IMG/VR virus record: IMGVR_UViG_3300024999_000051
Length of the DNA: 64,000 nucleotides
From: an uncultured virus (IMG/VR IMGVR_UViG_3300024999_000051)
Taxonomy: Duplodnaviria; Heunggongvirae; Uroviricota; Caudoviricetes
Direction: 5' to 3' (one strand)
A program made the translations under genes and the position numbers. Shown piece after piece: positions 9,596 to 55,661 of this stretch (position 1 is its first letter; every line of letters begins with the position of its first letter). The notes under the pieces were generated by a model. The model saw only the letters and a list, made by a program, of their open reading frames with translations, was not told the origin of the DNA and did not search any database.

Positions 9596-9925
9596 TTATT
9601 CACCACAAATATTTAAAATCTTTTCAAGATCATCTATACTCAATTTAGAAAAATCAATTTCCTTACATTTAGTTACTAATCTTTTTTTCTTAAATTCAAG
9701 TAAAACTTCATCCGTTAACTGAGATAGAGAAGAATAACTCCATGTGCTTCCTGTCCTTTGGCTACCATCTGGATTAAATTGTTTTCCACTTTCAGTATTA
9801 ATAAATCCTTTAGGAGTAATTTTTACAACTGAGGTTATTGCTTTACCATAATTATTAGTTTCAATTACAACCTTATCTCCTGCTTTTAAATCTTGAATCC
9901 ATTTTTTATCATTCATTATGTACAC
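9596..9925 (-). CDS. KOW/SH3-like beta-barrel phage protein
   Basis: LKAGDKVVI...VVKITPKG...FNPDG. Confidence 0.7.
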   Translation of the reverse strand: MYIMNDKKWIQDLKAGDKVVIETNNYGKAITSVVKITPKGFINTESGKQFNPDGSQRTGSTWSYSSLSQLTDEVLLEFKKKRLVTKCKEIDFSKLSIDDLEKILNICGE

Positions 9926-14802: not shown

Positions 14803-15525
14803 TTACTCAATTCCTCCTTCAATCTCAGCAACATTAAATCCTAATTCCTTCGCTTCATCAAAATCAAATCCTTCATCAGTATGCATAATAAAAATTTTTC
14901 CCCTTAGTCCTTCAGGTATCAATTCTACAAGCTTTCCCAATGACAAATGTACATTACCATCATAATCTGCTTTGCATGTATCTTGATACAAACAATTAAG
15001 TTCTCCACATTCTAAACCATATAAAATAGATTTAGGTATCTCATAGCTGTCTCCACTATAATAAGCATTTTCTTTTGTAACTATATTTAAAAGTAATATT
15101 CCAAATGAAGTTAATTCTCTAACATGTTTATTTAAAATAAAAAGTAATTGAATATTTAAGTTTTCAATCTCTGCAAATTGATTAATCGCACAATTATCAA
15201 ACTCACAATGTTTCTCTGTAACTCCCATAATCTCAAGCAATTCAATAAAATCACTGTTGACCGCATGGAATGTTGGCTTAATATTTTTAATGAAATAACA
15301 ATAGAATATTAAACTCCCTAGACTTCCCATATGATCTGGATGAGTATGAGTTACAGCAATATGGACTTCTGAGACATCTGATAATAGATTTAGAGATATG
15401 ATTCTATCAAAAGTTAATTCACCACAATCAATAAGTAATAGTGTATTGTTTTCTTTGATGTAGGCACTTGTGTTACCTAATTTTGTATTGAATGCTGAAC
15501 CTGTGCCTATGAATTTTAATTTCAT
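14803..15525 (-). CDS. MBL-fold metallo-hydrolase, Apyc1 (anti-Pycsar)/RNase Z-like
   Basis: GTGSAF, LLIDCG, THTHPDH, YYSGD, VHLS and IMH motifs. Confidence 0.85.
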   Translation of the reverse strand: MKLKFIGTGSAFNTKLGNTSAYIKENNTLLLIDCGELTFDRIISLNLLSDVSEVHIAVTHTHPDHMGSLGSLIFYCYFIKNIKPTFHAVNSDFIELLEIMGVTEKHCEFDNCAINQFAEIENLNIQLLFILNKHVRELTSFGILLLNIVTKENAYYSGDSYEIPKSILYGLECGELNCLYQDTCKADYDGNVHLSLGKLVELIPEGLRGKIFIMHTDEGFDFDEAKELGFNVAEIEGGIE

Positions 15526-50514: not shown

Positions 50515-51168
50515 TCATACCAATACCGCATCCTTTCTAGGTTTAAGATATTGTTTATAATCTTCAGTGCACCATTTTATTATTTTATTATATCTTGATT
50601 TTGTAAAATTGGGGTTATGTATATTATACCACTCCTCAAATATTGCAGTATGTTTTGAACTATTACAACTTTTACATGCAGGGATACAATTTTCTAAACC
50701 ATTACTACCATCATGTATTTTATGTTCTTTGTGAAAATCTCCTAAAATCATTTTACCTGCATACTGTACCCAATGATCTTCTAATGGCATTCCACAGTAA
50801 GCACATTTATAATTAAAATATTTTTTACATGCTTCCCATTCTTTTTCAGATATATCATGATTGTCATGTTGTTGGCTGTATCCTTGACATTTATCAGGAT
50901 TATTTCTTTGCCAACCCAAATAATAACCAGACTTTCTTTGTTTTACACCTTCTTCGAACCTAAATTTAATTCTCTTTTCTGTTTTTGCATATTCAATTTT
51001 TTGTTTTGCATAGGATTCTGGATTGTCTTTCATCCATTTTATACTTCTATTTCCTACACATTTTTTACATTCGCGCCTATAATAGATAGTGCCATCTTTT
51101 CTGAATTGAGAATAATATTCTGATAGTTCTTTATCTTGTTCGCAAGTTGGGCAAATTTTAGATTCCAA
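50515..51168 (-). CDS. HNH endonuclease
   Basis: N-terminal CxxC..CxxC; CAYCG...HKEH...NCIPACKSCNSSK. Confidence 0.85.
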   Translation of the reverse strand: MESKICPTCEQDKELSEYYSQFRKDGTIYYRRECKKCVGNRSIKWMKDNPESYAKQKIEYAKTEKRIKFRFEEGVKQRKSGYYLGWQRNNPDKCQGYSQQHDNHDISEKEWEACKKYFNYKCAYCGMPLEDHWVQYAGKMILGDFHKEHKIHDGSNGLENCIPACKSCNSSKHTAIFEEWYNIHNPNFTKSRYNKIIKWCTEDYKQYLKPRKDAVLV

Positions 51169-51739: not shown

Positions 51740-51994
51740 TTATAAAATAACTCCAATTTGGCATACTTGATATGTTACACGTAAATTTTCATGTAAATTT
51801 AATGCTTCAAGCCACATTGTAGGATCAATGTCTTTTTCTTGACATTTTTTAATATTTCTTCTAAATACATTTGATTCGTCTTGATTCAAGCATGATTCCA
51901 TTTGAGATTCTGCGAACTCCTTAGTACCAGTGGTAGCCTGTTGAATATCCATTTTACCAGTGTTAAAAACCTTGACAATTGCATACATATTCAT
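51740..51994 (-). CDS. hypothetical protein, first gene after the long leader
   Basis: AGAGG RBS before MNMYA. Confidence 0.65.
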   Translation of the reverse strand: MNMYAIVKVFNTGKMDIQQATTGTKEFAESQMESCLNQDESNVFRRNIKKCQEKDIDPTMWLEALNLHENLRVTYQVCQIGVIL

Positions 51995-52014
51995 AATTCT
52001 AACCTCTTTCATTC

Positions 52015-52885
52015 TTAATTTTGCCCAAGGTCTAAACTCATTTGTTATAAGTTCACACCTTAAGTTTAATTAATCCCTTCAGCCTGTAGTATAGATAATT
52101 TAACCACTAACCATTACCACAAGCCAGTTATAACGCTCACACAATTAAAGTTAAGTTATGTTAAACCTTAATATTAGATAATTCAGTTTTGGTTGCAATA
52201 ACCTCCGGTGAATTATCTAAAAGATTAAAGTAAATGATAATTAACTATACGACCATGTGATTGTTATTGATAGGCAAGCAATTTACACTTCACTATTTTA
52301 CTAAGTCCGTAGAAATAATAAGCAAGTGTTATGCAAATATAGTGCAATTGTTATGATTAAATTGTAATAATGATAGAGTGAAGGGATTTGGTAGAATGTT
52401 TATCCTTTCCTCTATCCTTTATAAATTCTAACATATTTTGTATTCCGTGTATCTCTATTTTCTTTTGGCGGTCATGAATCATCATTCGATCATGGGAAGC
52501 TTTCAAGAAAATTTTAATATAGAGGGAATATCCCATATGCTAGAATTTAGAAGGGATAGAGAATTGGATAAATGAAAGAGAGATTTATACTAGCCCATAT
52601 CGCACTCGAATTTTTTACCACGTTCTTGATTATAACCCTCAGAGGATATTCTAAAAGAATACTCTAATGTATGTTATTTGACAAGTGTTGGCTGGCTAGC
52701 CTCTTAATTCAATTTTCAAAGAACGTCTCAACTCTTTTTCAAGAATTCGCACTAGGTTGTTTTCCTAGTCACGCCACAAGATACTTTGTGGTTGTTGGCC
52801 CTCCTTATGTATATTATTTTTAGGTTCAAGTGAACATTTGACTTTGCTAGTGGTTCAAGAGGTTGTTGTTTGTTTCCCTCTTATG
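52015..52885 (-). ncRNA. ~0.9-kb structured non-coding leader RNA
   Basis: No ORF of 60 aa or more; many hairpins including a ~175-nt rod (52399-52572); boxA; repeated AUAAC(A). Confidence 0.65.
52713..52724 (-). promoter_or_regulatory. rrn-type boxA antitermination motif
   Basis: GTTCTTTGAAAA on minus strand, after three short hairpins, ~160 nt from the predicted TSS. Confidence 0.7.
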
Positions 52886-52891
52886 TTCCCT

Positions 52892-52920
52892 ATTTTATAT
52901 TAATGAACTAAATAAGTCAA
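52892..52920 (-). promoter_or_regulatory. sigmaA-type promoter of the leader
   Basis: TTGACT-N17-TAAAAT. Confidence 0.7.
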
Positions 52921-53001
52921 GGAAAACTTTTATATATTACTTGTTTATGGAGTCCTATTTTATTGTAGATATTTTATAAACAATTTAAAACTTCTGAAGA
53001 C

Positions 53002-53034
53002 AAAAAGACTAAGTATTTATACTTAGTCTTTTTG
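53002..53034. terminator. bidirectional intrinsic terminator
   Basis: AAAAAGACTAAGTA/TACTTAGTCTTTTT. Confidence 0.8.
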
Positions 53035-53045
53035 TCTTTTGTTTA

Positions 53046-54101
53046 TTACTTTGCTGGTGCTAATAAATCATTTCCTTTAAATCCTTTTTTAACCCTCTCG
53101 TACCATGTCACCTTACTTATTCCTGCAATTGAACACCATTCATCTACCATACGACTAACCCCATTTATTTCTATATACTTTCTCCTTCCTACTCTTGTTC
53201 TAGGTTTTAATAAATCATTTATATTCCATCCATAAGCTATTCTATTTATAATTATTTCTCTTGTTAGACCTGAAATTTCGGCCCATTCAGTAATCGTATG
53301 TATTTCTCCATTAATTTCTACATGTTTTGTTTCTCTTGGCTCAAGATCCTTAATTAACTCATTTCCTTCTAATCCTTTATGATATCTATCTTGTATTACA
53401 TAATATGGTATATTATATTCCTCTGATAATTCTTTCATAGTTTTTATTTCTCCTTCCATGTTTATTTTTATAAAATGCTGATCTTCTAAAATATCCTTGC
53501 CTTTCTCTGATCTATTCTTTATAGTATAAGATTTAATTCCAGTTTCTTCGCTCCATTGCGTTAATGGTTTTATTTCATTGTCATACTCAATATAAATAGT
53601 ATTTGTTTTATTATTTTGTTGTTCTTTATGCGTTGCCCATCTACAATTGTCTGGTTCGTAATTTCCATCGTTTTCAATCCTATCAATTGTTAAATTGTCT
53701 TCATAACCGTTATTTAAAGCCCATGTATAGAATTTTTTACTATCTTTTAACCATTCATCACAAACAGTAATTCCCTTTCCTCCGTAGTATTTATAACCAT
53801 TAGTTTTAGGGTTATAGCATCTACCTTTCATGTTTGAATAAGTTTGCTGTAATCTTTCTGGGATTTTGTTTTTAGGTTTTTTGGGTTTATTGTATTTTTT
53901 ACTATTTTTACTCAAACATTTTTTACATAGTCCATTTAAGCCGTCTTTAGTATTTGTTGGATTTTTATTAAAATATTTATCATTACAAGGAAACCAAGGA
54001 CTTTCTTCAGGAAAATAGATATAATGTTTATTACATAACTTTTCTAATTCTCCATTATCGTTTAATCTGTGATTTTCTTCATAAGGTACTAATTTTGGCA
54101 T
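53046..54101 (-). CDS. HNH homing endonuclease with C-terminal HTH-like repeats
   Basis: MKGRCYNP...YGGKGITVCDEW...LTIDRIENDGNYEPDNCRWAT; repeated INGE..T..EW units. Confidence 0.85.
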   Translation of the reverse strand: MPKLVPYEENHRLNDNGELEKLCNKHYIYFPEESPWFPCNDKYFNKNPTNTKDGLNGLCKKCLSKNSKKYNKPKKPKNKIPERLQQTYSNMKGRCYNPKTNGYKYYGGKGITVCDEWLKDSKKFYTWALNNGYEDNLTIDRIENDGNYEPDNCRWATHKEQQNNKTNTIYIEYDNEIKPLTQWSEETGIKSYTIKNRSEKGKDILEDQHFIKINMEGEIKTMKELSEEYNIPYYVIQDRYHKGLEGNELIKDLEPRETKHVEINGEIHTITEWAEISGLTREIIINRIAYGWNINDLLKPRTRVGRRKYIEINGVSRMVDEWCSIAGISKVTWYERVKKGFKGNDLLAPAK

Positions 54102-54402
54102 TAATTATTTCCTCTTTCTTTTTATAATTTATTTATTAATCCACCATCAATAATAACCTATTTATGTATAACCAAAAATATTAATCAAAATCTCCTATCT
54201 CCTTTCATAAAATTATTTTTGTATCTAGGGTACTCTTAAGTATAACATACTTAAAATAATATTGTACACTCTCAAATAACCATGTTTTAACCTGTTTACA
54301 GTCGTTTATATGGTATTATCTATTGATTGCTACCATATACACAGTATTACTATATATTTAATATTATTTTTAGATTTGCATTGATCTCCAGCCACAATTA
54401 AC

Positions 54403-54486
54403 CCTATTTTGATTCTGAGACGTTTAAATCAACGCTAGGTAGGATTATACTAGGCAATACAATCTAAAGGCAAGAAGGGCCATTTC
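54403..54486. repeat. degenerate ~85-bp spacer element, copy A
   Basis: TATTTTGATTcTG....GTTTAAA...TAG...GGATTATA...AGGGCCATT, aligns with copy B. Confidence 0.6.
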
Positions 54487-54550
54487 TGTCTGTGTGTTTT
54501 GAGGGTGCGAAGGATTAAAAAAGGGAAAATGAGTTATCCGGCTGAATGAG

Positions 54551-54584
54551 CAAAGAAAAAGACTAGAATTTTATTTCTAGTCTT
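54551..54584 (-). terminator. intrinsic terminator
   Basis: AAGACTAGAA/TTCTAGTCTT plus U tract. Confidence 0.75.
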
Positions 54585-54778
54585 TAGATATTTCTATTTA
54601 GATTTTTAAAAATTTCTTTTCGTTCCGGCAAGATGAGCGATTTAAGATATTCTATTCTTTTATTTTCCGAAGGATTATCTTCTACAAATAACTCTGCTTG
54701 TTCTATCATAATTGATATACGCTTTTTTAATTCTCTCCATTTTTTGTTCAATTGCTTTTCTGTTTTCATGTGCGCCAA
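54584..54778 (-). CDS. hypothetical basic protein
   Basis: Own promoter, AAGGAG RBS and terminator. Confidence 0.65.
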   Translation of the reverse strand: MAHMKTEKQLNKKWRELKKRISIMIEQAELFVEDNPSENKRIEYLKSLILPERKEIFKNLNRNI

Positions 54779-55624: not shown

Positions 55625-55661
55625 GACAAAAAGAAAGACTAGGTTTGTGGCCTAGTCTTTA
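55625..55661 (-). terminator. intrinsic terminator
   Basis: AAAGACTAGG/CCTAGTCTTT plus U tract. Confidence 0.75.

Follow-up and report, generated by a model that had tools for sequence, protein, structure and literature searches.

The stretch of DNA described here, positions 52,015 to 52,920 of a 64,000-nucleotide (nt) sequence from an uncultured virus of the Caudoviricetes (IMG/VR record IMGVR_UViG_3300024999_000051; the full 64 kb are referred to as the window), contains a boxA of the type found at ribosomal RNA (rrn) operons, followed by a long hairpin, which we call the rod, and by a second structured module, the core, which runs into the ribosome-binding site of a small gene. The features of the stretch all lie on the minus strand. 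We rate it at slightly above an even chance that an early operon of the phage, read by the host RNA polymerase, has this stretch as its untranslated and modular leader. The best reading of its sequence is that rrn-type antitermination by Nus factors, or RNA chaperoning, would serve this long untranslated phage leader. This reading is carried by the boxA word, which appears from its relatives to be conserved under selection while its surroundings diverge, on one strand and close to a promoter, and by the rod, which covariation strongly supports as a structured RNA. The rod and the core are conserved RNA modules without an Rfam entry. A sequence-only reading of the same DNA had proposed a phage leader that borrows rRNA antitermination; the comparison supports the boxA half of this proposal, as the word is conserved, strand-specific, promoter-proximal and, in an 18-nt version, identical to rrn forms, whereas Nus binding and read-through are steps that we infer.

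boxA and its surroundings in the relatives

Relatives were gathered by several searches. The protein encoded downstream of the stretch identified two IMG/VR loci, an invariant block of 27 nt identified five, and a pattern for the 3′ end identified 16 viral loci, of which nine are related and seven (L009, L012, L013, L017, L018, L020, and L021) are chance matches that were left out because they share no other similarity. A two-block pattern across the ribosome-binding region reached 55 metagenome loci, none of them identical to the window, and these together with the window comprise 46 distinct cores.

The boxA, GUUCUUUGAAAA with a UUGAAU extension (52707..52724), is unique in the 64 kb. When the window is taken alone, the 12-mer is not significant (one match with at most one mismatch, against 1.3 expected), and the case for boxA therefore rests on the relatives. 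For the counts, we used the 41 distinct loci with at least 1500 nt upstream of the core and searched up to 2 kb in each. The word G[ACT]TCTTTGA[AC]AA is found upstream of the core on the sense strand in 30 of these 41 loci and on the antisense strand in none, and downstream of the core it is absent from both strands in ∼69 kb. In the relatives, the word is followed by YURAAU, and its forms include GAUCUUUGAAAA, GCUCUUUGAAAA, and similar ones. At least five kinds of sequence flank boxA, and these do not align with each other. In those kinds that were looked at by eye, a hairpin whose sequence differs from kind to kind ends 5 to 25 nt before boxA, no boxC was recognized, and no sequence-conserved boxB was identified. 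In addition, a promoter-like site matching 9 to 12 of 12 consensus positions lies 52 to 203 nt upstream of boxA in all 13 relatives with sufficient sequence; 14 representatives were examined for these predicted promoters, and L040 was excluded as too short.

The boxA consensus of the Bacillus subtilis rrn operons is AUGAUCUUUGAAA, and NusB was shown to bind it by NMR (nuclear magnetic resonance), according to the boxA passages of PMC13753749 (mBio 2026), which also place the B. subtilis boxA right after a small 5′ hairpin. One relative, L008, holds AUGAUCUUUGAAA exactly as the consensus is printed there (PMC13753749). The boxA of the window agrees with it at 11 of 13 positions. The 18-nt phage version of boxA, GCTCTTTGAAAACTGAAT, occurs in at least 120 bacterial contigs from many phyla, so that the host cannot be inferred from the boxA flank. 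Among 20 of these bacterial loci checked with Rfam, seven have the 18-mer near rRNA, six of them at 38 to 313 nt upstream of the 16S 5′ end and one in the 16S–23S spacer. As a separate observation, a pemK RNA motif lies ∼150 nt downstream of the exact 18-mer in two Clostridia-type genomes (L104:443-536 and L126:865-943). Both matches score above the gathering threshold, both loci belong to the checked ones without rRNA, and the arrangement suggests that boxA may also precede the pemK cis-regulatory RNA.

The rod, the core, and their combinations

The rod is an imperfect hairpin of 174 nt with the apical loop C-GAAUGAU-G (52399..52572). The inverted repeat that the sequence-only reading had placed at these positions was recovered with arms at 52399-52467 and 52504-52572 that are 72% complementary, and the sense strand folds with a minimum free energy (MFE) of −56.5 kcal/mol (z −7.0 against shuffles). 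Rod homologues come in three sequence types, and all 26 fold by themselves as long hairpins of −34 to −66 kcal/mol. Covariation among homologues, which that reading had named as a check, came out clearly for the rod. With a consensus built from the homologues' own folds (alignment A4), 29 of 63 pairs are changed on both sides, a number reached by none of 500 shuffles and compared with 8 to 17 in slid controls. Cells with double changes number 105 (51.8 in shuffles; 0/500 reach it), the covariation score is 0.240 (0.152 in shuffles; 0/500 reach it), and 80.2% of cells are paired (73.4% in shuffles). These statistics are to be read with the rows being related, the consensus self-derived, and the type II rods misaligned in the middle, which lowers the paired percentage. 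The pair beside the loop-closing C-G is G-C in 12 rods, U-A in seven, A-U in four, and C-G in three, and it is broken in none.

Since the rods were first gathered by the word at their apex, the search was repeated with a profile that does not require it. The apical loop GAAUGAU was found in 27 of 28 true distinct rods, with the loop reading CGAAUGAUG in 25 and UGAAUGAUG in two, while L056 has a different loop. The lower rod consists of ∼34 near-continuous pairs, which is at least about two turns of double-stranded RNA and thus the length called for in an RNase III-type hairpin. The rod is present once in the window, shows no obvious large central bubble, and among the relatives occurs with or without an adjacent core junction and at varying distances from it.

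The core is ∼230 nt long and extends to the ribosome-binding site of the first gene, which varies. Its 5′ half (52327..52400) holds the junction AACAUUCUA, the 5′ arm of helix P1 (AAUCCCUUCA, 52388-52379), and the block CAUUAUUACAAUUUAAUCAUAACAAUU; a 27-nt core block is identical to that of the window in five viral contigs, and L008 and L019 each differ. In the window, P1 is interrupted by a lineage-specific insertion of ∼205 nt (52123..52326), which includes a 12-bp stem (52220-52174) and stands where typical cores have an apical hairpin of ∼100 nt. This insertion is absent from L001 and L002 and ∼88% identical in L047, and L024 has another insert at this point. Across 43 distinct cores, the span enclosed by P1 is 82 to 105 nt in 34 and 240 to 296 nt in nine. 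The 3′ half (51995..52122), delimited from alignment A2 and its consensus fold, contains the 3′ arm of P1 (CUGAAGGGAUU, 52082-52072), a hairpin of ∼40 nt with AUAACA in its loop (52063-52024) followed by AGAAUG, and the Shine-Dalgarno sequence AAAGAGG (52009-52003), with the start codon at 51994.

Alignment A2 was built from 33 of the 34 distinct cores of typical form; L046, which has an internal deletion, and cores bearing insertions or cut at an end were left out. RNAalifold predicts, as the outermost element, that CAUUC pairs over 5 bp with the GAAUG immediately ahead of the Shine-Dalgarno sequence, and that this pairing encloses a P1 of 13 bp, a long imperfect hairpin inside P1, and a hairpin before the ribosome-binding site. 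In A2, 97.6% of cells are paired and the mean column identity is 87%; as the search pattern prescribed the 3′ blocks, their invariance is uninformative. One variable pair of P1 is C-G in 24 of the 43 distinct cores, U-G in nine, U-A in six, C-A in three, and C-U in one. Moreover, many consensus pairs of the core are mostly G-U, which is impossible on the other strand and points to the sense RNA. For the core, the covariation check gave a divided answer, as the eight double-change cells are reached by only one of 500 shuffles, whereas the count of pairs changed on both sides, weighed below, is weak.

AUAACA words lie at or in hairpin loops of the core. Both the rod loop word GAAUG and the AGAAUG by the ribosome-binding site are complementary to the junction word CAUUC, which follows many rods and precedes most cores. 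These three words may form competing pairings or simply mark recombination junctions; in the more far-reaching and doubtful reading given below, GAAUG, CAUUC, and AGAAUG could act as a competing-pairing switch for the first gene. In the window, AUUCUACC can be paired with the nucleotides that separate the Shine-Dalgarno sequence from the start codon, but this pairing is not conserved in the relatives and was dropped. With nhmmer, the core is single-copy in the window, as are its conserved 3′ blocks; together with the single rod, this rejects a cassette repeated within the 64 kb.

The first gene (51740..51994, minus strand) encodes 84 amino acids (aa) from its likely start and has no Pfam or PHROGs match. 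The sequence-only reading had put its start at 51994, and this is most likely correct, as the ATG at 52012 given in a list of open reading frames (ORFs) meets an immediate stop in the relatives. Homologues of the protein are encoded in L001 (87% identity) and L002 (64%), and an unrelated gene takes its place in L003, L005, L006, L008, and L019. The nucleotides are nevertheless conserved up to the start codon, though the gene that follows differs between relatives.

The leader is thus built from separable modules, namely a promoter with short hairpins and boxA, an optional rod, optional small genes, and the core. In L008, the order is an HNH gene, a 5′ domain of the window type, the rod, a gene for 91 aa that has a Shine-Dalgarno sequence of its own, and the core. 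L019 has the 5′ domain fused straight to the core with no rod, L005 has a core with other upstream sequence and neither rod nor a window-type 5′ domain, and L007 has a diverged rod type. Among the 30 distinct loci that bear boxA, the rod stands between boxA and the core in 18 and is missing there in 12. Small genes with a Shine-Dalgarno-like sequence lie between boxA and the core in 21, and the other nine, the window included, have no sense ORF of at least 55 aa with such a sequence there. Between boxA and the first conserved ribosome-binding site lie 338 to 1922 nt (median 960). The 91-aa gene between rod and core recurs in several relatives (L025/L008 ∼1941-2327, also L006, L030, L032, and others) and in L008 has a copy of the word AAAACATTCTA on either side; many leaders also share an 86-aa ORF.

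Extent of the stretch and its setting in the window

Between the upstream HNH gene and the next gene lie ∼1.05 kb (51995-53045, minus strand) without a conserved ORF. The only internal ORF, of 59 aa (52357-52536), falls within the rod. It was rejected as a hidden protein gene, since it has no family match in Pfam or PHROGs and is disrupted in 21 of the 26 homologues of the rod. The sequence-only reading had called this the largest ORF-free gap of the window, which is correct once the 59-aa ORF is set aside and incorrect if it is counted.

A sigma70-like promoter, TTGACT-N17-TAAAAT, matches 10 of 12 consensus positions (52892..52920) and predicts a transcript start at ∼52885. The 5′ leader (52730..52882) contains, by sequence and MFE folds, four short hairpins: AAGAGG/CCUCUU close to the 5′ end (52882-52857), CCACAA/UUGUGG (52791-52774), ACUAGG/CCUAGU (52769-52751), and AAUUCUU/AAGAGUU (52747-52730), the last of which ends 5 nt ahead of boxA. 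Their stems are nearly invariant in close relatives and hence give no covariation test. The rest of the 5′ domain (52581..52706) folds into nested hairpins closed by a long-range pairing of the type GGCUAGCC...GGGCUAG, and the 5′ domain is 86 to 92% identical in L008 and L019. These elements had largely been noticed beforehand in the sequence-only reading: the promoter, the four hairpins, the boxA-like word (52724-52713), the 12-bp stem (52174-52220), and at least five AUAACA words, of which we counted five, are all present at the positions given or within a few bases of them, and the terminator it had seen at 53002-53034 is a 20-bp stem at 52996-53039.

The stretch as a whole (52900-52015) is strongly structured on the sense strand, with an MFE of −238.4 kcal/mol against a shuffle mean of −170.2 kcal/mol (z −7.8), whereas a coding control of equal length gave z +0.18. 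On the antisense strand, the fold is 26 kcal/mol less stable. Taken separately, the 5′ domain (52885-52581) has z −3.8 and the core with its insertion z −6.5. The five copies of AUAACA in the stretch compare with ∼0.8 expected, a roughly sixfold enrichment, and only ∼1% of same-strand segments of 906 nt contain that many. In two 80-nt stretches of the leader, the C/G ratio is 2.7 to 2.8, compared with 0.63 on this strand genome-wide; as these C-rich stretches coincide with one rod arm and the 5′ half of the core, no Rho site was deduced from them.

The search with cmscan against Rfam that the sequence-only reading had suggested left the stretch without an Rfam family. At gathering score, the covariance models gave no match in the 64 kb, and at E values up to 10 they gave just generic hairpin look-alikes far below threshold. 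In 12 relatives, a single sub-threshold match was obtained, to GP20-b, outside the modules and upstream of them (L043:815-864; 29.8 bits against a threshold of 36.2, E 0.013). The known families ROOL, GOLLD, OLE, HEARO, 6S, group I/II introns, and riboswitches were accordingly discarded for want of a covariance-model match. An intron tied to the flanking HNH genes was likewise discarded, as no intron model matched and the leader persists in L001 and L002, which have no HNH gene there.

The window is AT-rich phage DNA in which small genes, almost without exception on the minus strand, follow one another for more than 60 kb. Its protein domains (HNH endonucleases, GmrSD-like, a large DNA methyltransferase, YopX, Bro-N, and helix-turn-helix) are typical of phage accessory or early regions. 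A collection of named phages gave no DNA match to the window in near or distant search mode, and its protein matches, of at most ∼28% identity, are to large myoviruses. No tRNA or tmRNA was found in the 64-kb window. The 5′ boundary of the unit is an intrinsic terminator with a 20-bp stem and a T-run (52996..53039, minus strand) after the upstream HNH endonuclease gene (53046-54101, minus strand; phrog_3377, E 7e-70). This gene is missing here in L001 and L002 and present in L008 (86% DNA identity), and it thus behaves like a free-standing, mobile homing endonuclease gene. HNH endonuclease genes lie on both sides of the unit, the other at 50515-51168. Terminator hairpins with arms of the type AAAGACTAG...CTAGTCTTT recur between transcription units (55634-55660, 54558-54585, and 52996-53039), and such shared arms could be recombination sites behind the mosaic structure. 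Elsewhere in the window, a second ORF-poor gap of 482 nt (54102-54583) contains promoter-like sites and has flanks 84 to 87% identical in L005/L019, and sub-threshold Pfam matches were seen to the anti-Pycsar protein Apyc1 (14803-15525; 43.6 bits, cut-off 50) and to a phage ProQ C-terminal-like RNA-chaperone domain (9596-9925; 24.9, cut-off 27).

Proposed mechanism, alternatives, and known systems

In the mechanism that we favor, the sigma70-type promoter at 52920-52892 would start the RNA, and boxA (52724-52707) would be exposed ∼160 nt into it, where it would recruit host NusB-S10 and, via them, NusG, NusA, and partners. By analogy with the Escherichia coli rrn antitermination complex, the polymerase would become resistant to termination, chiefly by Rho acting on ∼900 nt of ribosome-free RNA. 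As in that complex, the start of the RNA would be kept near the exit channel, so that long-range helices would be favored. The polymerase would then transcribe the rod, with its conserved GAAUGAU loop, and the self-closing core, and would go on into the early genes. Both modules would most likely work in cis, by influencing the processing or stability of the transcript, for instance through cleavage of the rod by a double-strand-specific RNase, and as a 5′ untranslated region (UTR) that sets translation of the first gene. The RNA-chaperone aspect and the RNase III processing of the rod are parts of this scheme that we infer.

Several observations weigh against this mechanism. The promoter, the transcript, and the transcript ends are all predictions, and the mechanism presupposes Rho, NusB, and a matching rrn boxA in the host. 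The boxA word is missing within up to 2 kb upstream of the core in 11 of the 41 relatives (L028, L029, L032, L044, L046, L048, L058, L064, L067, L068, and L078), four of which have only degraded look-alikes such as AATCTTTTAAAA, although the boxA of these loci may lie beyond 2 kb. The relatives are kin, and the boxA counts are therefore not independent events. Among the 20 bacterial 18-mer loci, 13 have no rRNA within 700 nt. No intrinsic terminator was found between the stretch and the downstream genes, and weak terminator-like sites downstream on the sense strand (two in 36 to 53 kb) do not exceed the shuffle level. There is thus no obvious intrinsic terminator for the polymerase to bypass, and such terminators were dropped as the target of boxA. 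The structural evidence has weak points as well. The antisense strand of the stretch also folds better than its shuffles (z −5.4), and only four of 60 core pairs are changed on both sides, a count that is not unusual among shuffles (52 of 500 attain it). Finally, typical cores carry a promoter-like site, TTGTAA-N17-TATACT, between the P1 arms (e.g. L042:1816-2047, A2 columns ∼112-140), in whose variants T1, A2, and T6 of the −10 element are preserved. If active, this internal promoter would yield a transcript without the 5′ arm of P1.

Instead of acting in cis, the rod, the core, or both might be trans-acting RNAs cut from a boxA-led precursor, as rRNA and tRNA are, with a protein that recognizes the GAAUGAU or AUAACA loops as partner, or RNA polymerase itself as for 6S RNA. 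We regard this as unlikely, though it accounts for several of the results above. Of 28 rods belonging to three types, 27 retain the loop while the stem covaries, AUAACA is sixfold enriched and sits at or in core hairpin loops, the rod comes with or without the core junction at variable distance, and the core has a mean column identity of 87% (A2), compared with 64 to 87% for the neighboring protein (L001/L002). However, neither module is followed by a terminator or a defined 3′ end, neither 6S nor another Rfam model matches up to E 10, and the rod lacks an obvious large central bubble. Moreover, 12 of the 30 boxA-bearing loci have no rod ahead of the core, and the core runs into the ribosome-binding site, which fits a cis-acting UTR. 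A fuller version, which we hold to be doubtful and a shade less probable, has the phage copy the logic of an rRNA operon: the rrn antitermination and RNA-chaperone complex, loaded with the help of a host promoter and boxA, would fold the precursor, double-strand RNases would cut the rod and the closing helices P0 and P1 of the core, and stable phage RNAs of a new kind would be freed to act in trans. Their GAAUGAU and AUAACA loops might, for instance, titrate a host factor that binds RNA or serves in defense.

Two further explanations are much less probable. The sequence-only reading had allowed that the whole ∼0.9 kb might be one large, ornate non-coding RNA (ncRNA) of the ROOL, GOLLD, or OLE kind. 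Many GOLLD and ROOL copies reside in phages, so the phage setting would suit it, as would the very strong structure over the full length and the predicted long-range helices that close the 5′ domain and the core. The modules, however, recombine freely (L019, L005, and L008), small genes sit inside the leader in 21 of 30 loci and split it, and there is neither an Rfam match nor a 3′ terminator. The stretch consists of separable modules in differing combinations, and the idea of a single ncRNA is already disfavored. The boxA could also be real but serve Nus-dependent repression or attenuation, as in the E. coli suhB leader, to which we assign a similarly small chance. The relevant sections of PMC5725501 (Nat Commun 2017) report that suhB is repressed through BoxA and that many genes other than those for rRNA have putative boxA words ahead of them. 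This precedent and the end of the core at a ribosome-binding site would agree with repression, but the boxA words considered in those sections were taken within 50 bp of a start codon (PMC5725501), whereas here boxA lies 338 to 1922 nt from the ribosome-binding site and near the promoter, an rrn-like position, and the genes that follow differ between relatives.

It is very improbable that the conserved parts act as DNA, whether as a replication origin, a recombination hotspot, or inverted repeats and operators that bind proteins around the internal promoter: the antisense fold, the internal promoter-like site, the mosaic junctions at the repeated AAAACATTCTA word that flanks the inserted gene in L008, and the homing endonuclease genes on both sides would speak for it, but the helices persist by way of G-U intermediates and compensatory changes, which are meaningful for the sense RNA alone, the sense fold is the better by 26 kcal/mol, boxA is strand-specific by 30 to 0, and the internal promoter hexamers are lost in insertion-bearing versions (both in L047 and L024, the −35 in the window) while P1 is retained.

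Returning to the boxA-led leader, it can be compared with several known systems. GOLLD, ROOL, and 6S RNA share its size range, its rod-like or ornate structure, and the phage setting; unlike them, the leader has no covariance-model match, is modular in build, and has no terminator of its own. BoxA also occurs upstream of suhB and of CRISPR operons in gammaproteobacteria, according to the passages of PMC13753749 on such sites, and the boxA-related sections of PMC5725501 argue that BoxA regulation extends beyond rRNA. The likeness is a boxA placed so that a ribosome-free transcript would escape Rho, as we suppose here. However, those sites are chromosomal, gammaproteobacterial, and of the form GYTCTTTAANA, whereas the present ones are of the GNUCUUUGAAAA type, are borne by phages, and precede novel RNA modules.

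The closest resemblance in sequence is to the rrn leader and spacer, where boxA and its flanking hairpin work with a complex of NusB-S10, NusA, NusG, SuhB, and S4. They share the boxA word, to the point that L008 has the exact B. subtilis consensus (as printed in PMC13753749) and the 18-nt version stands at rRNA genes. They also share its position, on the sense strand 52 to 203 nt after a sigma70-like promoter with a hairpin ahead, and both lead a long untranslated structured RNA with long-range closing helices. In contrast to rrn operons, the present system is phage-borne, leads to small protein genes, has no identified boxC or sequence-conserved boxB, and is known here from sequence.

Antitermination by BoxA and Nus factors is established in rRNA operons and also in lambdoid phages, which use it together with the N protein. 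The lambda pL leader has nutL with boxA and boxB, then a large RNase III-sensitive hairpin, then the N gene, and it relies on host Nus factors. The order of elements is the same here, namely an early promoter, boxA, a large hairpin, and the ribosome-binding site of the first gene, and the leader would likewise rely on Nus factors. No antiterminator or N-like family was found by Pfam and PHROGs among 14 neighboring proteins, a search that short arginine-rich N-like proteins would escape. In full-text literature searches, which do not cover subscription journals, we found no description of rrn-type boxA leaders in non-lambdoid phages. If the reading is true, hijack of the host rRNA transcription machinery without an N protein would be a wider phage strategy, which would explain how phages afford kilobase-long untranslated structured leaders, and it would concern early operons of large, non-lambdoid, uncultured phages with a full rrn-type boxA at their head. 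Compared with lambda, the leader differs in that its first gene varies, its boxA is of the full rrn type rather than the shortened lambda type, and its hairpin is longer (174 nt) and optional.

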